A DNA stretch of 64,000 bases from Candidatus Woesearchaeota archaeon (GTDB lineage Archaea > Nanobdellota > Nanobdellia > Woesearchaeales > UBA10216), in the NCBI GenBank assembly GCA_016211185.1, contig JACQST010000043.1, forward strand, positions 1,489 to 65,488. The letters are read 5' to 3'. Positions 17,355 to 29,004 of this stretch are shown piece by piece. The notes under the pieces are model-generated. The model had not been told where the DNA came from, ran no database searches, and saw only the letters and a list, made by a program, of their open reading frames with translations. The position numbers and the translations under genes were made by a program. Position 1 is the stretch's first letter, and each line of letters starts with the position of its first letter.

Positions 17355-18266
17355 ATGGCGCTGTTTGAGCTTGCCCTGACTGTAGCTGGGCTTTCTCTGT
17401 TCGAGGTCATAAGCAGCATCGATAACGCCATCATCAATGCCGAGGTTCTTTCGACAATGCAGGAAAGGGCCAGGCGCTGGTTTCTTCTTTGGGGTTTGCT
17501 GTTCGCGGTGTTCGTAATCAGGGGCGTGCTACCTTGGCTTATTGTCTGGGCCACCGCACCTTCACTCGGCCCGGTAGGTGCATTGACAGCCACGTTCAGC
17601 AGCGACCCGCGCGTGATTGAGGCTGTGGAGATGTCTGCTCCCATTCTGCTGATTGGTGGAGGGACTTTTCTTGTGCTGCTGTTTTTCCACTGGCTGTTCA
17701 TGGAGCAGAAGCATTATGGCTTGGTGGGAGAGAGATTTTTCCATTCGCAGGGAGTGTGGTTCTACGCTGTTGCGTCCATCTTCCTTGCAGTGATTGTGTG
17801 GTTTGCGCTGCACAAGAATCCGCTGATGGCTTTCTCATCGGTTGTTGGCTCCACTGCTTTTTTCATCACGCACGGCTTCAAGCAGAACGCCGAGCACGAG
17901 GAGGAAAGGCTTCTTGAGAAGGGGAGGTCTGACCTGAGCAAGGTATTTTATCTTGAGGTGATAGACGCGACATTCTCAATAGACGGTGTGCTTGGGGCGT
18001 TCGCGTTCACGCTTTCAGTTCCGCTTATCCTGCTGGGGAACGGACTGGGTGCTGTTGTTCTCAGGCAGATGACCGTAACAAACATAGACCGAATAAAGAA
18101 ATACAAGTACCTGAAGAACGGGGCGATGTATTCGATACTTTTCCTGGGGATGATAATGGTTCTTGACAGCTTCGGATTTCACATACCGAGCTGGCTATCG
18201 CCTGTTACTACTTTTGGCGTTGTAGGTTACTTTTTCTGGAAGTCGAGCCGGGAGATGGGGAGATGA
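17355..18266 (+). CDS. TerC/DUF475-like integral membrane protein
   Basis: Repeated E-x-I-S-S-I-D-N-A/E-V-I-D-A-T-F-S-I-D-G motifs across 7-8 TM segments. Confidence 0.5.
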   Translation: MALFELALTVAGLSLFEVISSIDNAIINAEVLSTMQERARRWFLLWGLLFAVFVIRGVLPWLIVWATAPSLGPVGALTATFSSDPRVIEAVEMSAPILLIGGGTFLVLLFFHWLFMEQKHYGLVGERFFHSQGVWFYAVASIFLAVIVWFALHKNPLMAFSSVVGSTAFFITHGFKQNAEHEEERLLEKGRSDLSKVFYLEVIDATFSIDGVLGAFAFTLSVPLILLGNGLGAVVLRQMTVTNIDRIKKYKYLKNGAMYSILFLGMIMVLDSFGFHIPSWLSPVTTFGVVGYFFWKSSREMGR

Positions 18267-20849: not shown

Positions 20850-20934
20850 CTGAAGGTTTCTATTGATGATATTTTTAAGCTTTTTTACCGCAAGTTTTTT
20901 AAGCTGCTGGTCCGGTATTCTTGATGGTGCTTTA

Positions 20935-23622
20935 ATGGATTTTTATTCTGCTGAGATTAAGGACGTTTTCTTGAATGCCGGCAGCTCGAAGGATGGCCTT
21001 TCGGCAAGCGAAGCTAAAGCCAGGCTTAAGAGGCACGGGTTTAACGAACTGGTTAGGAAGAAGAGGAGGACTGCGCTCAAGATTTTTTTTGAGCAGTTCA
21101 GGAACTTCCTGATACTCCTGCTTTTGTGTGCGAGCGTGCTTGCGGTATTTCTGGGCGATTACGTTGAGGCTGTCGGCATGATTTGCATAGCGATTTTGTC
21201 TGCCATACTGGGGTTTGTTCAGGAGTATAAGGCTGAGCGGGCCATGGAAGCGCTAAAAAGGATTTCTGCCCCGACCGGGAAGGTCGTGAGGGATGGCTCT
21301 GAGAAAAAGATACCTGCCCGGGAGATTGTTCCAGGTGACGTGATAGTTATCGAGTCAGGCGACATAGTTGCCGCGGATGCACGGCTGTTCGAGGATTCAA
21401 GCCTGCAGGTTGATGAGGCGATACTGACAGGCGAGTCTGTTCCTTCTCCAAAGGATACCAAGAAGCTGAAGGAAGGCACTGAAATCACTGAGAGGACGAA
21501 TATGGTCTTCATGGGAACAATAGTCACTTATGGGAAGGGAAGGGGGGTTGTTACCGGCACCGGAATGGATACTGAATTCGGCAAGATTGCCCTCACAATT
21601 GAGGAGGCTGAGGAGCCAAAGACTCTTTTGCAGAACAAGTTTGAGTCCCTTGCGAGGCAGATAGGGCTGGTGGTCATAGTCCTTGTAGGTGTTGTGTTTG
21701 TCTTGGGCCTTTCTTTTCAGAAGGAGGTTTCAATTGCGCGCATGCTGATTTTCTCAATCAGCCTGGCGGTTGCTGCTGTTCCGACTGCGCTGCCTGCCAT
21801 AGTGACTATAGGCTTGGCGCTTGGCGCGAGCAGCATGGCCAAGAGGAACGTGATAATCAAGAAGCTGCCCGCAACTGAGAGCATGGGCTCTGTTACTGTT
21901 ATTTGCAGCGACAAGACAGGCACGTTGACAAAGAGCCAGCTTAGCGCGACAAGGCTGTTCTTTGACGGGAATGTTATTGATGTTTCAGGCATAGGGTATG
22001 AGCCTAAGGGGGAATTCAAGCACGGGACTGAGAAGATGGACAAGAAAAGCCTTGAGTTCATGCTGAGGATAGGGTATCTGTGCAACAATGCGAAGCTTGT
22101 TGAGAAGGGTGGCCGGTGGGATATCATTGGGGACCCGACTGAGGGTGCATTGGTGGTGCTTGCAAGGAAGGGCAGGCTTGATGAGAAGGCGTTGTCGCGG
22201 CGCCTTTCAGTTGTGAAGGAGCTTCCATTCAGTTCTGAGCGCAAGATGATGACTGTTATTGCTGGCAGGAAAAGGAAGCCTGAGCGTGTATGCGCCTATG
22301 TGAAGGGCGCTCCGGATGTTGTTCTCAAGAAGTGCGCAAGGATATATGATTCCGGCAGGATAAGGAGTCTTACGAAGAGGGACAGGGAGTCCATCCTTTC
22401 TGTTAATGAGTCATTTGCCGAGGATGCCCTCAGGGTGCTTGGGCTTGCGTGCAGGGATATGCCTGCGGGCGGCAAGTATGAGATTGAGGGTGTTGAGAGG
22501 GACCTTGTTTTTGTAGGGCTTGTCGGCATGATTGATGCTCCCCGTGAGGAGGTTGCTGCTGCTGTGAAGCAGTGTGAGGACGCGGGGATAAATGTCATAG
22601 CCATAACAGGCGACCACCCTGTAACAGCGAAGGCTGTTGCGGACAGGATTGGCCTACTGAAGAAGGATGACCTCGTGGTTACCGGGGAGTATATTGACCG
22701 GCTCAACGATTCTGAGCTTATGGAGAAGCTTGGCAGGATAAGAGTTGTGGCGAGGGCGCTTCCAGGCCACAAGCTCAGGATGGTGAAGCTGCTGAAGAAG
22801 CAGGGCCATGTCGTTGCAATGACTGGCGATGGTGTTAATGACGCGCCGGCATTGAAGACTGCTGACGTCGGCATCGCGATGGGTATCACTGGCAGCGACG
22901 TGGCCAAGGAGGTGTCAAAGACAGTTCTTGTTGACGATAACTTTGCAAGCATAGTTAACGCCATCAGCGAGGGGCGCAACATATATGACAAAATCATCAA
23001 GTCTTCCCGTTATCTTTTGTCGTGCAACCTCGGCGAGATAATAACTGTTTTCCTTGCGATAATGCTGAACCTGCCGCTGCCCCTTGTCCCTCTCCAGATA
23101 CTTATGATGAATCTCCTTACAGATGGCCTGCCTGCACTTGGCCTGGGCATGGAGGGCGCTGAGGAGGACGTGATGAAGAGGTCTCCAAGGAACCCTAAGG
23201 AAAGCCTGTTCACGAATGAGATGCTTATACTTACCCTGATATTCGGCATCGTGATGGGGATAGGCACGCTTTTCATATTCAACACTTATCTTGACAGGGG
23301 GGAGGAGGTTGCGAGGACTGCTGCGTTCACAACGCTTGTGCTGTTTGAGATGTTTGCAGTGGTGGGAAGCAGGTCCCTTTATCCGTTCAGGAAGCTCAAC
23401 ATATTCACCAACAAATGGCTCCTGCTTGGAATCCTTGCTTCGGTATCCATCCAAGTGGCTATTGTGAACTGGGGGCCTCTTCAGGCCATCTTCAGCACAG
23501 TTTCCCTGAGCAGCTCAGACTGGCTGAGGATAGTCACGATATCAAGCCTTGGCTTCTTCGTCATGGAGCTCGGCAAGGTGTTTGTGAGCGGGCTCAGGGC
23601 AGGCAGGAACGCCCCTTCATAG
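20935..23622 (+). CDS. P-type cation-transporting ATPase (type II, Ca2+/cation)
   Basis: CSDKTGTLT phosphorylation site, TGDGVNDAPALK hinge and 10 TM helices. The start was refined to MDFYSAEIKD. Confidence 0.9.
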   Translation: MDFYSAEIKDVFLNAGSSKDGLSASEAKARLKRHGFNELVRKKRRTALKIFFEQFRNFLILLLLCASVLAVFLGDYVEAVGMICIAILSAILGFVQEYKAERAMEALKRISAPTGKVVRDGSEKKIPAREIVPGDVIVIESGDIVAADARLFEDSSLQVDEAILTGESVPSPKDTKKLKEGTEITERTNMVFMGTIVTYGKGRGVVTGTGMDTEFGKIALTIEEAEEPKTLLQNKFESLARQIGLVVIVLVGVVFVLGLSFQKEVSIARMLIFSISLAVAAVPTALPAIVTIGLALGASSMAKRNVIIKKLPATESMGSVTVICSDKTGTLTKSQLSATRLFFDGNVIDVSGIGYEPKGEFKHGTEKMDKKSLEFMLRIGYLCNNAKLVEKGGRWDIIGDPTEGALVVLARKGRLDEKALSRRLSVVKELPFSSERKMMTVIAGRKRKPERVCAYVKGAPDVVLKKCARIYDSGRIRSLTKRDRESILSVNESFAEDALRVLGLACRDMPAGGKYEIEGVERDLVFVGLVGMIDAPREEVAAAVKQCEDAGINVIAITGDHPVTAKAVADRIGLLKKDDLVVTGEYIDRLNDSELMEKLGRIRVVARALPGHKLRMVKLLKKQGHVVAMTGDGVNDAPALKTADVGIAMGITGSDVAKEVSKTVLVDDNFASIVNAISEGRNIYDKIIKSSRYLLSCNLGEIITVFLAIMLNLPLPLVPLQILMMNLLTDGLPALGLGMEGAEEDVMKRSPRNPKESLFTNEMLILTLIFGIVMGIGTLFIFNTYLDRGEEVARTAAFTTLVLFEMFAVVGSRSLYPFRKLNIFTNKWLLLGILASVSIQVAIVNWGPLQAIFSTVSLSSSDWLRIVTISSLGFFVMELGKVFVSGLRAGRNAPS

Positions 23623-23686
23623 CCCTTCGTAGGTTGGGCTTTTTGTTGCAAAAACAATTTAAGCGGCTTCGTGTCAACCGGCTATT

Positions 23687-24712
23687 ATGGGAGGAAAGGA
23701 CGCTACCATACAGGGCTTAGGTTTATTTATTCCTGACACGTCATATCTCATAGACCTTTCGCAAAGGAATATCTGGACGCTTCATGCTCATGATGCTTAC
23801 GCCAGGGCTGGGAACCCTGAGATCCGTGTTCCTGACAGGGTAATAAATGAATACCTTGGAAAAGTGGGTATGCATGATGAATACGGCGTGCCTCTGACAA
23901 GCAATGAAGTAAAATCTGCGCTGGAAGAAATACTTGGTTCTTGGGATACTAACATTACATCATTCGCACAGGAAGACATGGACAGGATTCACGGGATGTG
24001 GACGCTGCGGTGTCGTAAGAGCAGGATACCTGGCCACAGATACAGCAAGACTGACATGGACATCATGAGCACTGCAGTGACAAAGGCAAAGGAAGGCTTC
24101 ACTGTCTATGTGGCCTCTTCAGACAGAGACATAACGGAAACTCTGATGGGTCATCAGGATAATGGCTTCCCTATAGTGGTGTTTATGCCTTCCACCCCGA
24201 GGAAAGACGTCCTTGATAAGGTGTGCATGCTCGTGACCGGGCAGGCACTTATGCAGGTACCTGAAGTTGTTGGTCGCGGCTACGAGTCCTACAACTATTT
24301 TCTGAAGGTGGTTAAAGGTGTGCCTTTCGGAGAGGGCTGCACAGCAAATGTCGCTGTGGCTGCAGAGAGATTCGACTCATTCAGGAAGCCGCCAAAACAG
24401 GAGGGTATATCATGGGTGAAGATCATAGTAGGAACTCTTGGAGACGACGCAAGGAATGCCAATCGATTTTGGCACAGAACCCGTGAGTTTGGGCTGAATG
24501 AGCTTGTTGGCTTTACCTGCTGTGCTTATCCTGGAGATTTCAGCCTCTACAAAATAGGTCTCGAAACCAATGGGGCACAGCCAACGGCATACGCGACCTC
24601 CCGCATATCAGTGGATGCTGAGGAAGTGGTCTGGGCAAGGGTTGACCTGCCTTTCATGAGGGCCCATTCTCCACGCGCGCTCGGTATGCTCAGCCCGTAT
24701 ATGAATCGGTAG
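23687..24712 (+). CDS. PIN-domain protein with an uncharacterised C-terminal extension of about 170 aa
   Basis: Acidic residues placed as in a PIN fold (FIPDTSYLID, VPDRVINEYLG, KTDMDIMSTA, VASSDRDITE); the C-terminal half has no recognisable domain. Confidence 0.5.
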   Translation: MGGKDATIQGLGLFIPDTSYLIDLSQRNIWTLHAHDAYARAGNPEIRVPDRVINEYLGKVGMHDEYGVPLTSNEVKSALEEILGSWDTNITSFAQEDMDRIHGMWTLRCRKSRIPGHRYSKTDMDIMSTAVTKAKEGFTVYVASSDRDITETLMGHQDNGFPIVVFMPSTPRKDVLDKVCMLVTGQALMQVPEVVGRGYESYNYFLKVVKGVPFGEGCTANVAVAAERFDSFRKPPKQEGISWVKIIVGTLGDDARNANRFWHRTREFGLNELVGFTCCAYPGDFSLYKIGLETNGAQPTAYATSRISVDAEEVVWARVDLPFMRAHSPRALGMLSPYMNR

Positions 24713-24729: not shown

Positions 24730-26508
24730 ATGTCCATTGCTTTATCAATGGTGTTATCCAGAAAGCCTTTTAAAATGCATGGTTATCCTGCCGGCATGGA
24801 GAACTTCAAAACAGGCTTTTATTCTGAGCTTGTGTCTGCTCTGAGGAACAGCAGGTTCGATAAGGCTGAGTTCTCAAGGCTGAAATCGAGTCTTGCAAGT
24901 AAGTATTCCTTGAAAAGCATTCCGACAGATATTGAGGTAATGCTTAACCTGCCTGAAGAATCAAGGAAGCATATCAAGCTCGTGACCAAGCCTACACGGA
25001 CTGTTAGCGGCGTTGCAGTGGTTGCCCTTATGAGCGCTCCTCTGAGCTGCCCTCATGGGAGGTGTGTTTTTTGCCCTGGCGGCCCAGGCTCTGTTTTTGG
25101 TGACGTTCCGCAGAGCTATACAGGGAAGGAGCCTTCGACTATGAGGGCTATCAGGGCAGGTTACGATCCTTATGTCATTATGTTTAACAGGCTTGAGCAG
25201 TATGCTGTTTCGGGGCACAGCTTTGGCAAGGTGGAGGTTATTGTGCAGGGAGGCACATTCCCTTCTTATGACTGGTCGTATCAGGAGATGTTTGTGAGAG
25301 AAGCTTTTGCAGCGATGAACAGCTTTTCACGGCTTTTTTTCAGGAGGGAAGGGAAGTGGGAAGGGGAGCTGGATTTCGTGGGCTTCAAGGATTTCTTTGA
25401 TCTTCCTGGCGAGGTCGGGAGCTCTGAGCGCATGAGGAAGGTTCACTCAAGAATATTCGAGGCCAAGAACTCGTCACAGGCAAGGAGCCTTGAGGAGGAG
25501 CAGGAAGAGAACGAGTCTTCCAATGTGAGGTGTGTTGCGCTTTGCATCGAGACAAAGCCTGACTTCAGCAAGTCTGAGCACATCAATGACATGCTCAGGC
25601 TGGGGACAACGAGGGTTGAGCTTGGGGTGCAGACACTTTATGATGACGTCCTGTCAAGGGTTAACCGGGGCCACACCCTGCAGGACACTTTGGAGGCTGT
25701 GCAGCTTCTGAAGGATTCCTTCCTGAAAGTTGGCTTTCACATGATGCCAGGCCTTCCAGGCTCGGATTATCAGAGGGACATCGCTATGTTCAGGGAGCTT
25801 TTCGAAAACCCCGCATACATGCCCGATAATCTGAAGGTTTATCCCTGCATGGTTATGCCTGGAACAGAGCTTTACGATGACTGGAAGAGGGGGGATTTTG
25901 CTCCTTTGTCCACAAGGGAGGCTGCGGAAATAATAGCTGAGTCAAAGAGGTTTGTGCCTGAGTATTGCAGGGTCATGAGGGTGCAGAGGGATATTCCGAC
26001 TTATGTGACATCTGCAGGTGTTGACAGGACAAATCTCAGGCAGTATGTGGATATGATAAGGGCTGAGCAGGGGATTTTCTGTAGGTGCATAAGGTGCCGT
26101 GAGCCAATGTCAAGGAAGTTTGATTTGGGCAGGGCTGAAATCATAGTTCGGCGCTACGCTTCAAGTGGCGGAACAGAGGTATTTATTTCGGCAGAGGATG
26201 TTTCGTCTGATGTGATGCTTGGGTTCTGCAGGCTCAGGATTCCGTTCAGGCCGTTCAGGCCAGAGATAACCCCTGGCTCTGCAGGTGTGAGGGAGCTGCA
26301 TGTATTCGGCCCCGCAGCCTCTCTTAACAGAGTGGGGAGTGTTCAGCACAGGGGCTTTGGAAAGCTTCTTCTTTCAGAGGCTGAGCGTGCCGCGAGGGAT
26401 GAGCTTGGTGTGGAGAAGCTGCTCGTGATTTCAGGTGTCGGCGCAAGGAACTATTACCGGAAGCTTGGCTACGAGAGGGATGGGGCGTATATGGGTAAGA
26501 GGCTTTAG
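24730..26508 (+). CDS. elp3: Elongator complex protein 3 homolog (radical SAM plus GNAT; tRNA U34 carboxymethyl modification)
   Basis: CPHGRCVFCPGG radical-SAM cluster motif and a C-terminal GNAT (HRGFGKLLLSEAERAA). Confidence 0.85.
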   Translation: MSIALSMVLSRKPFKMHGYPAGMENFKTGFYSELVSALRNSRFDKAEFSRLKSSLASKYSLKSIPTDIEVMLNLPEESRKHIKLVTKPTRTVSGVAVVALMSAPLSCPHGRCVFCPGGPGSVFGDVPQSYTGKEPSTMRAIRAGYDPYVIMFNRLEQYAVSGHSFGKVEVIVQGGTFPSYDWSYQEMFVREAFAAMNSFSRLFFRREGKWEGELDFVGFKDFFDLPGEVGSSERMRKVHSRIFEAKNSSQARSLEEEQEENESSNVRCVALCIETKPDFSKSEHINDMLRLGTTRVELGVQTLYDDVLSRVNRGHTLQDTLEAVQLLKDSFLKVGFHMMPGLPGSDYQRDIAMFRELFENPAYMPDNLKVYPCMVMPGTELYDDWKRGDFAPLSTREAAEIIAESKRFVPEYCRVMRVQRDIPTYVTSAGVDRTNLRQYVDMIRAEQGIFCRCIRCREPMSRKFDLGRAEIIVRRYASSGGTEVFISAEDVSSDVMLGFCRLRIPFRPFRPEITPGSAGVRELHVFGPAASLNRVGSVQHRGFGKLLLSEAERAARDELGVEKLLVISGVGARNYYRKLGYERDGAYMGKRL

Positions 26509-26510
26509 TT

Positions 26511-26909
26511 TCAAGCATCGCCAAGTCTGAGACCGGGAATATTTTTAAAATCCTTGAGGTTCCGCGTCAGGAGAACATTATTGTTTTCCTTGCATATGCT
26601 TGCTATCATTAAGTCTATTTCCTGTGTGATGAGTCCTCTTGATTTGAGGAACGCATAATCCCGGCCAAATATAAGGCAGCTGTGCTTTGAATGTTGAAGC
26701 AAGTTGACACTTTCAAGAAACCTGTTGACAAAACTCAGTCCCTCTTCAGGTTTTACAGACATAAATGCGCCTTTATATAGCTCGCAGAGGGTTAAGGGAG
26801 TTATGCTTATATCGGCTTCCATGTTCTGCAGAAGGCTTAATCTTTTTACTGCCGAGCTTTCTCCTCTGATAAAATCAATGGCAAAATCTGTATCGAGGCA
26901 GTACATCAA
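26511..26909 (-). CDS. vapC: PIN-domain toxin VapC
   Basis: MMYCLDTDFAIDFIRG...; 132 aa; overlaps the upstream antitoxin by 4 nt. Confidence 0.75.
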   Translation of the reverse strand: MMYCLDTDFAIDFIRGESSAVKRLSLLQNMEADISITPLTLCELYKGAFMSVKPEEGLSFVNRFLESVNLLQHSKHSCLIFGRDYAFLKSRGLITQEIDLMIASICKENNNVLLTRNLKDFKNIPGLRLGDA

Positions 26910-27136
26910 AACCCTACCTTCCGTAATTTAAACTTTTTCCTATCCTCATAGATAGTCCTCTTGATGGTTTCAAGTTCTTGATTTCCTCCAGGCCATTTTC
27001 CCGCAAGCTCAAGAAGGGACTTCTTTTTTTCAGTTGACGCAATTCTGTTGACTACATCAGAGAACGATTCACCTTCCTTCTTCAAAGATTTTAGGCATGT
27101 GTAGGCTTCATCCGAAAGCGAGATTACCTTGGTCAT
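26906..27136 (-). CDS. vapB: VapB-type antitoxin (archaeal)
   Basis: MTKVISLSDEAYTCLKSLKKEGESFSDVVNRI matches the common archaeal VapB-like antitoxin; translationally coupled to vapC. The start was refined from the track. Confidence 0.6.
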   Translation of the reverse strand: MTKVISLSDEAYTCLKSLKKEGESFSDVVNRIASTEKKKSLLELAGKWPGGNQELETIKRTIYEDRKKFKLRKVGF

Positions 27137-27192
27137 TAAGTGCATGTATGCATGCATGTATATAAATTTACCGTTCCAGAAGTTTCCGAACA

Positions 27193-27438
27193 TCAAGACT
27201 TTTTGTATGTAACGTTGAGATATGCAGAGTCTATATCAGTTTTCCCGCCAGGTGTTACAAGGATTTGTGCAATGCCCTTGTTTATCATAGGGTTAAGTGT
27301 GGCTGTTTTTCTTTCCCTGACAAAGTCATCACAATGTACATAATAGTCAGGTATGGGTTTCCATTCGTCGAACTCTGTAAGTGTGTACATAGAAAAAACA
27401 TAAGTGCACAGAACATCAACAACCGCTTTTGTCTCCAC
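27193..27438 (-). CDS. Hypothetical protein (81 aa)
   Basis: Track ORF in an AT-rich islet with no recognisable domain. Confidence 0.35.
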   Translation of the reverse strand: METKAVVDVLCTYVFSMYTLTEFDEWKPIPDYYVHCDDFVRERKTATLNPMINKGIAQILVTPGGKTDIDSAYLNVTYKKS

Positions 27439-27495
27439 TACCTGTCCGAATTCGGAAACATTGAACTTGATTAATTGTTCCTCTTTCTGGGATCA

Positions 27496-27867
27496 TCATT
27501 TCTTCTTGCCTCCGAAGCTCCTTATTAGGTCTATTACGTATTTTCCCTCGTCAACCTTGTATATGAGTGGCTCGTTTTTCATCATCTGGACTAAGTCAAG
27601 TTCGTAGGTTCCTGGCTTCATTATCCTTATTGTTTCTAAGTCAAGCACAACAGGTTCGTGTTCCTCCTGCTCGCCTATTATCTCCATGACGTCCTGCTCT
27701 ATCTGGTCTTTTTCTGTTTCTGTGAGGTTGGCTGAGAGTTCCCTTATCCTGTCAAGCTTTTCCTTTTTTATGAAGAAGAACAGCTTGCCTCCACAGGGGC
27801 ATCCCTTGAGGACTTCCTCTGCCTTGTCTTCATAGAACGTGTTGCATCGCACGCATTGGTGGGGCAT
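27496..27867 (-). CDS. Zn-ribbon protein (DUF2072-like); third gene of a GTPase/DUF2073/Zn-ribbon triad
   Basis: MPHQCVRCNTFYEDKAEEVLKGCPCGGKLFFF is a CxxC...CxC ribbon; an acidic middle and a C-terminal beta-rich domain follow. Confidence 0.55.
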   Translation of the reverse strand: MPHQCVRCNTFYEDKAEEVLKGCPCGGKLFFFIKKEKLDRIRELSANLTETEKDQIEQDVMEIIGEQEEHEPVVLDLETIRIMKPGTYELDLVQMMKNEPLIYKVDEGKYVIDLIRSFGGKKK

Positions 27868-27869
27868 TT

Positions 27870-28268
27870 TCAGGCCTGCTTTGTTCTTTTTCTTCTGGTG
27901 CTTTTTTCAACAGTGAACAGCTGTATCTTGTCAGGGTCTTTTTTTATTTCCTTGACTATTGTTGCGGGCCCGACTATGGTTATGCCATTCCTCCCGCCTG
28001 ATATCATGTCTATTACTTTCTGCTGGAGCATCTTCAGTATTCCATGCTCCCTCATGTCTGGTGTTAAGGAGAGCAGTTCTATTCCCTTGAACTTTCCATT
28101 TATTGTTTCCATTGTGGCGCTTATGAGTTTTGATTTTTCCTGCTCTGTCAGCTTAGCCTCAATGAGGAGTATTCTTCCGTCCCTTATTATTTCGAGTATC
28201 CTCTTTATTTTTTTTTCAGGGCTTAAGTCGCCTATCTGTGAATACGGGAGGAACTGGATTGTTATCAT
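27870..28268 (-). CDS. DUF2073-like protein
   Basis: 132 aa lying between the GTPase and the Zn-ribbon gene with gaps of 12 and 2 nt. The family assignment is from memory of the conserved archaeal triad. Confidence 0.45.
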   Translation of the reverse strand: MITIQFLPYSQIGDLSPEKKIKRILEIIRDGRILLIEAKLTEQEKSKLISATMETINGKFKGIELLSLTPDMREHGILKMLQQKVIDMISGGRNGITIVGPATIVKEIKKDPDKIQLFTVEKSTRRKRTKQA

Positions 28269-28280
28269 TTTTTTCGGGCC

Positions 28281-28910
28281 TCAGGTTATCTTGAACAGGG
28301 CCTCGTACAGCTTCTCGATGTTTGTGCCGTACTTTGCCGCTACTGGTATTACCTCGTATTGCGGGAATGCTGCCTGTATTTTTTTTATGTTTGCCTTTCT
28401 GAGGTCTGTCTTGTTAGCGACGATGAGCATTGGCGTTCGTCGTGCCTCAAGGTTTCCTATTATGGTTATGTTGACCTGGGAGTATGGGTCTTTTGTTGAG
28501 TCCAGCACAACTATGACTGCATCCATGTCATCAAGCCATTTTATTGCGTCGATTACTCCCCTTGTGGCTTCCTTTGCGCGCTTCTTTGCTATTTTGGAAG
28601 GCATGCCTGCCTTCACGAAGTCCTCGTAGTCTATCTTTGTGGCTATTCCTGGGGTATCCACCAGCGTAAAGAGCAGCTCTTTCTTTCCCGACCTTATTAT
28701 GATTTGGTCCTTTAGCTGCACTTCCCTTGTTTCATGGGGTATGTGGCTGACTGTTCCCATCTCCTCGCCTATCCAGTCTATGCAGATTCTGTTTGCAAGG
28801 GTGGTTTTGCCGCCATTCGGAGGCCCGTAAAGTCCTATCTTGATGTTTCTTTTGCTCCTGAAAAGGTGTGTGAATACTCTGTGTATAAGGTTGCTGAAGA
28901 CTGTTATCAT
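28281..28910 (-). CDS. Small Ras/Arf-like GTPase
   Basis: G1 GPPNGGKTT, G3 DTPG and G4 NKTD motifs; 209 aa. Confidence 0.75.
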   Translation of the reverse strand: MITVFSNLIHRVFTHLFRSKRNIKIGLYGPPNGGKTTLANRICIDWIGEEMGTVSHIPHETREVQLKDQIIIRSGKKELLFTLVDTPGIATKIDYEDFVKAGMPSKIAKKRAKEATRGVIDAIKWLDDMDAVIVVLDSTKDPYSQVNITIIGNLEARRTPMLIVANKTDLRKANIKKIQAAFPQYEVIPVAAKYGTNIEKLYEALFKIT

Positions 28911-29004
28911 CCTTTGTGCCTCTTTTCTACCCCCTATCCCCTCGTTGCGATATATAAAAAGATTGCGGTAGCTTTATATATTTCTTTTCTCAGTTTTCTT
29001 TGCC

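Follow-up and report, generated by a model that had tools for sequence, protein, structure and literature searches.

Within the 64-kb window that we analysed, which is the whole stretch of Candidatus Woesearchaeota DNA introduced above, a 341-amino-acid (aa) protein is encoded at 23687..24712 on the forward strand. We suggest that it represents a rare, lineage-restricted family of PIN nucleases fused to an MPN-like domain predicted to lack a zinc site, an unusual architecture whose key structural claims come from a model built on ten sequences. We are evenly divided as to the mechanism that we propose, in which the protein would be a metal-dependent PIN endoribonuclease carrying a non-catalytic MPN-like domain for docking, dimerisation or regulation, and would have a cellular RNA role and not that of a toxin in a toxin–antitoxin (TA) system. 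If the predicted architecture holds, the pairing of a PIN nuclease with a degenerate MPN/JAB domain would add a type of accessory domain to the PIN superfamily. It would also provide a structural assignment for a C-terminal half that had been described as novel, and possibly for the C-terminal region of the DUF4935/PIN_12 family. The reach of the finding is limited by the tiny size of the family, its seeming restriction to Woesearchaeota-like archaea and the lack of a conserved context pointing to a pathway.

The family was delineated by an exhaustive phmmer search over 1.84 billion cluster representatives (E<=1e-3), which gave 11 matches: the protein itself, one spurious match (see below) and nine genuine relatives. 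These relatives are 327-382 aa long (E 3e-41 to 5e-4) and 21-35% identical to the window protein, and their alignments with it start near residue 10 and extend far into the C-terminal half. The family comprises ten 50%-identity clusters among ~15 billion proteins, with one or two sequences per 90% cluster. Organism names are available for two relatives, both from Ca. Woesearchaeota, and one further locus (L001) carries the archaeal markers CDP-archaeol synthase and PTH2. The family is very rare, has no name and is seemingly confined to Woesearchaeota-like archaea. Other searches added no members: a word-indexed homolog search, run with the single sequence and twice with a profile, retrieved nothing beyond the protein itself and P0004; a profile scan of genomes found only the already known P0003 contig; two metagenome profile scans found no family member; and tblastn against plasmids and phages gave noise and no relative. 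Known families were equally silent on the window protein. No Pfam family matched at E<=1, scans of NCBIfam, PHROGs and PADLOC produced noise with nothing past threshold, and searches of PDB sequences, with the single sequence and then with the family profile, retrieved just de novo designs and chance matches.

An alignment of the ten members (the window protein and its nine relatives) reveals positions that are invariant in all of them, namely D17-T18-S19, W30, P49, V52, D64, D123, D146 and P168. The preliminary description of this gene had suggested that fused or neighbouring partners be sought among homologs. In the window and in the fetched homolog loci the two halves of the protein are always fused, with a single copy per contig and no stand-alone copy of either half, and no small partner gene lies beside the family member in any of the homolog loci (L001-L009).

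The predicted structure depends on this alignment. From the single sequence, AlphaFold produced an unusable model, with a predicted local distance difference test (pLDDT) score of 31. With the ten-sequence alignment it produced a two-domain model (pLDDT 81.5, predicted template modelling score (pTM) 0.81) that is of low confidence at residues 1-9 and 293-308 only. The motifs, together with the succession of helices and strands, lead us to infer a PIN-like nuclease domain at residues ~11-178 (23717..24220, + strand), followed by an MPN/JAB-like domain at residues ~179-341 (24221..24709, + strand). The modelled PIN-like domain begins with strand b1 (residues 12-16), helices 18-25 and 29-40, strand b2 (45-46) and helix 50-57, continues through an insert with a T-D64-x-F-G-x-P loop and helices 73-82, 95-113 and 121-135, and ends with b4 (139-143), helix 147-158 and b5 (163-166). 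In the model, residues 12-166 follow the PIN order of elements and, like solved PIN domains, fold into three layers (alpha/beta/alpha) built on a central parallel sheet. The closest structural matches of the model are VapC toxins.

Four acidic motifs had originally been read as PIN-like, and all of them occur in the translation: FIPDTSYLID (D17), VPDRVINEYLG (E55), KTDMDIMSTA (D123/D125) and VASSDRDITE (D146/D148). In the model, D17, E55, D123 and D146 appear to stand at the canonical acidic places of PIN domains relative to the secondary structure. D17 (codon GAC, 23735..23737), a predicted metal-binding residue in the invariant D-T-S, ends strand b1. E55 (GAA, 23849..23851), the second acidic position, belongs to the helix that follows b2, and D123 (GAC, 24053..24055) is the third, at the N-terminus of helix 121-135 preceding b4. 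The fourth, D146 (GAC, 24122..24124), lies in an S-S-D motif a few residues past b4. For comparison, the acidic residues of Shigella VapC are D7, E42, D98 and E119. D17, D123 and D146 are invariant in all ten members. The motifs originally quoted appear to be right, but the conserved residue within KTDMDIM is D123, not D125. Likewise, D146 is the conserved residue of SSDRDI, with D148 being Asp in seven of the ten. D64 (GAT, 23876..23878), also invariant in all ten, is a family-specific residue in the T-D-x-F-G-(I/V)-P loop. We consider it very probable that the N-terminal domain is an active PIN nuclease.

In the model the C-terminal domain runs through a strand at residues 181-183, helix 185-195, strands 202-214, 218-230 and 241-249, helix 254-265, strands 273-278 and 285-290, the low-confidence loop 293-308, strand 311-318 and the C-terminal helices. 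The resulting order over residues 181-318, b-a-b-b-b-a-b-b-b-b, is what we take to be the topology of AfJAMM, and the predicted structure conforms to the MPN fold. On balance, residues 179-341 probably adopt an MPN-like fold. The preliminary description had proposed a structure prediction for this half, which it regarded as novel. Its novelty holds at the level of sequence, where nothing matches, but the model probably belongs to a known fold, an MPN/JAB-like one devoid of zinc ligands. Conservation in this half is sparse, the only well-conserved positions being L-V-T184-G, D221 (Asn in the window protein), P282 and W316-A-R318-x-D. The JAMM motif was taken as E...HxHx7Sx2D, with the AfJAMM reference residues E22, H67, H69, S77 and D80 verified against 1OI0 and the reference MPN domain of Rpn11 verified against PDB entries. 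None of the ten members has this motif or an HxH in its C-terminal half, and they share no conserved His or Asp set. Judging from these sequences, the domain cannot be a JAMM isopeptidase, because every JAMM zinc ligand is missing. Every one of the ten members has a mildly basic C-terminal half (pI 7.8-10.1), and the PIN half is acidic in nine of ten; the basic charge would fit, weakly, with nucleic-acid binding or docking.

Several results weigh against this reading. At the N-terminal domain, the second acidic position is Glu in only seven of the ten members and Gln in the other three. None of the curated PIN hidden Markov models (HMMs) reaches threshold for the window protein or any relative. 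Aligning the family with a five-sequence VapC reference by hhalign recovered motif 1 only, with D17 placed on the first Asp, at a probability of 0.9%. Pfam matches below threshold were found mostly within the first 50 residues, to PIN_12 in three relatives and to PIN_4 in one. At the C-terminal domain, hhalign of the family profile against AfJAMM and Rpn11 found nothing (probability 0.2%), the profile search of PDB sequences gave no MPN match, Foldseek E-values are weak (about 3e-3), and the MPN assignment comes from a model of 10 sequences only. The Pfam scan of the ten members gave no JAB or Prok-JAB match either, so that the domain is MPN-like in its predicted fold and not by sequence similarity. 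Finally, metal binding, an RNA substrate, the C-terminal role and a housekeeping function are all things that we infer, substrate and role entirely so.

With these points in mind, we propose the following mechanism. The VapC-type PIN domain, with its predicted four-residue acidic site (D17, E55, D123 and D146), would most likely bind Mg2+ or Mn2+ and cleave single-stranded RNA endonucleolytically. By analogy with Rpn8, CSN6, eIF3f/h and Prp8, the MPN-like domain would most likely serve docking, dimerisation or regulation, and as a module would direct or gate the nuclease. The protein as a whole would be a cellular RNA-processing or RNA-turnover nuclease specific to the Woesearchaeota/DPANN lineage. 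We favour a cellular nuclease over a TA toxin because the gene seems to have its own promoter, has no antitoxin partner and has housekeeping neighbours in every genome examined. The MPN-minus domains (Rpn8, CSN6, eIF3f/h, the Jab1/MPN domain of Prp8, and Abraxas) resemble the predicted fold in strand–helix order and likewise have no JAMM ligands; they are protein–protein scaffolds, and that of Prp8 stands beside an RNase H-like domain. They differ from the window protein in being subunits of eukaryotic complexes that are not fused to PIN domains, and they share no sequence similarity with it. No description of a PIN-JAB/MPN fusion was found in the searchable literature or in curated family libraries.

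A possible alternative, to which we give less credence than to the proposed mechanism although the two are compatible, is that the protein is a distant archaeal member of DUF4935, with its C-terminal domain equivalent to the C-terminal region of that family. DUF4935 (now Pfam PIN_12, PF16289) comprises mostly bacterial, usually monocistronic proteins of ~350 aa. Their N-terminal ~200 residues form a PIN-like domain in which strand 2 is followed by a long helical insert, and their ~180 C-terminal residues, of alpha/beta structure, have no homolog among known structures (Matelska et al. 2017, PMC5499597). This layout, as described there (~350 aa, PIN-like 1-200, helical insert, alpha/beta C-terminus, monocistronic), is identical to that of our family, whose members of 327-382 aa likewise combine an N-terminal PIN-like domain with a C-terminal region and have no conserved neighbours, and whose window gene has its own promoter-like box. 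DUF4935 is the closest described family by layout, with the C-terminal regions set side by side by description only. PIN_12 is also the sole Pfam family matched by several relatives (P0003 at 5.8e-5, P0008 at 0.0055 and P0007 at 0.18). These matches nevertheless fall below the curated gathering cutoff of 32 bits and cover profile positions 2-54 of 172 only, the best relative, P0003, scoring 24 bits over positions 2-51. The window protein itself has no match to PIN_12/PF16289. In addition, DUF4935 is almost wholly bacterial, having been found in 310 bacteria and 2 archaea (PMC5499597), whereas the family studied here is archaeal (Woesearchaeota).

A PIN toxin of TA or defence type, in which the C-terminal domain would be an in-cis inhibitor or sensor that stress or infection releases, is in our view unlikely. 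The VapC ribonucleases (M. tuberculosis VapC11/15/26, Shigella VapC and A. fulgidus AF1683) are a close known system and the nearest structural matches, a genuine VapBC pair is encoded 1.8 kb downstream, and the pTM of 0.81 hints at tight packing between the domains, as would be expected of an occluding domain. On the other hand, the gene lacks an antitoxin partner and does not lie in a defence-island context, neither PADLOC nor PHROGs matches the protein, and plasmids and phages yielded no relative; the family is extremely rare and has one copy per contig among housekeeping genes, whereas TA toxins are usually multi-copy and mobile. MPN-like domains are, to our knowledge, not known as antitoxins. 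A conventional VapBC toxin is a single domain of ~130-150 aa, in contrast to the 341 aa and two domains seen here, a length that is conserved across the family. Compared with VapC, the window protein has no Pfam PIN match, a PIN domain of ~170 residues with an insert and an invariant T-D-x-F-G-x-P loop, no VapB gene, a 160-residue C-terminal domain, a single copy and a housekeeping context. We reject identity as a VapBC toxin because an adjacent antitoxin gene is absent and the protein has two domains. The earlier observation that the gene stands alone, with no adjacent antitoxin-like ORF (open reading frame), agrees with the list of ORFs in the window, in which every small ORF close by overlaps, out of frame, the upstream ATPase gene or the gene itself.

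Somewhat less probable still is a PIN domain that has no catalytic activity and serves as a scaffold, like those of Utp23, Nmd4 and SMG5, within a protein that is purely an adaptor. Degenerate PIN domains typically lose several acidic residues, while in this family three are invariant across sequences of 21-35% identity and the window protein retains all four.

We give little weight, though we mention it for its consequences, to the notion that the MPN-like domain, devoid of zinc, serves as receptor for a ubiquitin-like (Ubl)/SAMP-type beta-grasp protein, or for its carrier, and recruits or activates the PIN domain at a target related to translation, such as tRNA. If true, this would be the first PIN-MPN coupling and would link Ubl signalling to RNA cleavage in DPANN archaea, and the adjacency to ELP3 in the window and to PTH2/TruD in L001 would become meaningful. 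The nearest conceptual precedent for a PIN-MPN coupling is the bacterial Ubl-Mut7-C fusion of a ubiquitin-like beta-grasp domain with a PIN-like nuclease (Iyer, Burroughs, Aravind 2006, PMC1779556), in which a PIN-like nuclease is likewise coupled to a domain of ubiquitin-system type without conserved gene context. It differs in its PIN subgroup (Mut7-C), in having Ubl and not MPN as the partner, and in being bacterial.

The NOB1-, Fcf1- and NYN-type families, which the preliminary description had raised as possible homes for the protein, do not accommodate it, as there were no matches to their models. NOB1 is rejected by the absence of a four-Cys zinc ribbon (each C-terminal half has 0-3 Cys, none conserved) and of any PIN_6/NOB1 match. 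Fcf1/Utp24 is rejected since none of the ten members matches PF04900 at E<=1, and an NYN/LabA-like protein since no NYN model matches and NYN structures are not the closest folds. More generally, the family is not a universal ribosome-biogenesis factor such as NOB1 or Fcf1, because its distribution is far too sparse.

That the ORF arose by chance or is a decaying pseudogene without function, as might be suspected of a hypothetical protein with no match in curated families, is effectively refuted by its frame-specific codon bias, a promoter-like box at a distance typical of this genome, tight packing among genes, full-length homologs with shared invariant motifs and a confidently predicted fold.

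The ORF has an ATG start and exactly the boundaries first assigned to it, and the GenBank record lists it as hypothetical protein HY640_02765 of Candidatus Woesearchaeota archaeon. We scored its codon use by log-odds trained on 14 confident genes from the window. Only the annotated frame scores above zero (+0.215), the other five being negative. Each half taken alone is also positive (0.238 and 0.195), and the score of the whole ORF falls inside the range of the 14 reference genes (0.18-0.53). The ORF is a real gene, because its codon use is frame-specific and its homologs are full-length. At 49.9%, its GC content is unremarkable beside that of the window as a whole (48.3%) and slightly above that of the adjoining low-GC stretch at 27-29 kb (42-44%). 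The contrast drawn earlier between a GC-rich gene and a nearby accessory islet is thus real but slight, and the islet itself is probably not accessory, because a triad of origin-associated proteins lies there.

This triad consists of consecutive genes for OapC (PF09845, 8e-23), OapB (PF09846, 1.5e-17) and a small GTPase (MMR_HSR1) at 27496-28910 on the reverse strand. It sits in the lower-GC region (27000-29000, 42-44%), and a replication origin may for this reason be near.

The gene appears to have a promoter of its own. An oligo-T run (tttttgtt, 23640..23647, + strand), read from the sequence 18 nt past the stop codon of the P-type ATPase gene, is a candidate archaeal terminator separating the ATPase from the 341-aa gene; oligo-T runs serve as terminators in archaea. 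A TATA-like box, ATTTAAG (23657..23663, + strand), comes next and occupies positions -30 to -24 relative to the ATG. TerC and the 468-aa, 399-aa, 398-aa, 180-aa and 188-aa ORFs are each preceded by a TTTATA/TTTAAA box that starts at -29 to -33, and TATA-like boxes at these positions (TTTATA/TTTAAA/ATTTAA) were found in 7 of the 21 window genes inspected, with starts at 17355, 3223 (-), 52438, 33371 (-), 29005, 58521 and 23687. This pattern suggests that many transcripts of this genome are leaderless. As the distance of its box matches that of six other window genes, the 341-aa gene may well have its own promoter and a leaderless or near-leaderless mRNA. A sigma-70 promoter scan, a bacterial model that is not applicable to an archaeon, gave no match for the gene region.

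The placement of the gene between a P-type ATPase and ELP3, as first reported, is borne out by Pfam matches. The P-type cation ATPase (20863..23622, + strand) matches E1-E2_ATPase at 1.4e-52, and ELP3 (24730..26508, + strand) matches Radical_SAM_C, ELP3_N and GNAT. The ELP3 ORF begins 17 nt after the stop codon of the 341-aa gene and lacks a TATA-like box at the distance usual here (-29 to -33), and its first 15-22 residues (MSIALSMVLSRKPFKMHGYPAGM...) come before further in-frame Met codons. For these reasons, either ELP3 may be co-transcribed with the 341-aa gene or its true start may lie later. A conserved operon with ELP3 is rejected, since ELP3 adjoins the gene in none of the homolog loci. 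Directly downstream of ELP3, and convergent with it, lies the VapB/VapC pair (26511..27196, - strand), which is a complete system by itself. VapB matches PF02697 at 2e-17 and VapC matches PIN at 2.6e-8, the two genes overlap by 4 nt, and solved tRNA(fMet)-specific VapC toxins share 27-37% identity with this VapC. With DnaK, DnaJ, TerC, OGG, the ATPase, ELP3, VapBC, the OapC/OapB/GTPase triad and RsmB, the neighbourhood in the window is one of archaeal housekeeping genes. No tRNA genes (ARAGORN) and no Rfam families at the gathering threshold were found in the 64-kb window.

The homolog loci L001-L009 share no synteny. In L001 and L002, CarS and a CDP-alcohol transferase lie upstream and PTH2 and TruD downstream of the family member. 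Sugar-nucleotide and glycosyltransferase genes accompany it in L003-L005, PMSR, an M50-like peptidase and GCV_T are near it in L008, and CARDB and unknown proteins in L009. An AAA protein, a rhodanese and an SNF transporter are found nearby both in L007 and in the P0011 contig. The members at these two loci (L007, 5044-10550; P0011, ENA ERZ27297570) are 36% identical and have their neighbours in rearranged order, the AAA+ protein being of the RuvB_N/RFC-lid type. These common neighbours are probably residual synteny of related genomes and not a functional link.

It should be noted that the spurious phmmer match, P0006 (1186 aa), was rejected as a relative. This protein is a perfect tandem repeat of ~22 copies of a 53-residue unit, and its E-value of 5e-6 arises from 22 weak stretches aligned with residues 243-282 of the window protein. 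The summed score is spurious because weak matches of the tandem repeats add up. The same protein also gives a false Pfam match to CEP76_C (5e-16, with 0 significant stretches), and demonstrates how tandem repeats inflate summed HMMER scores.
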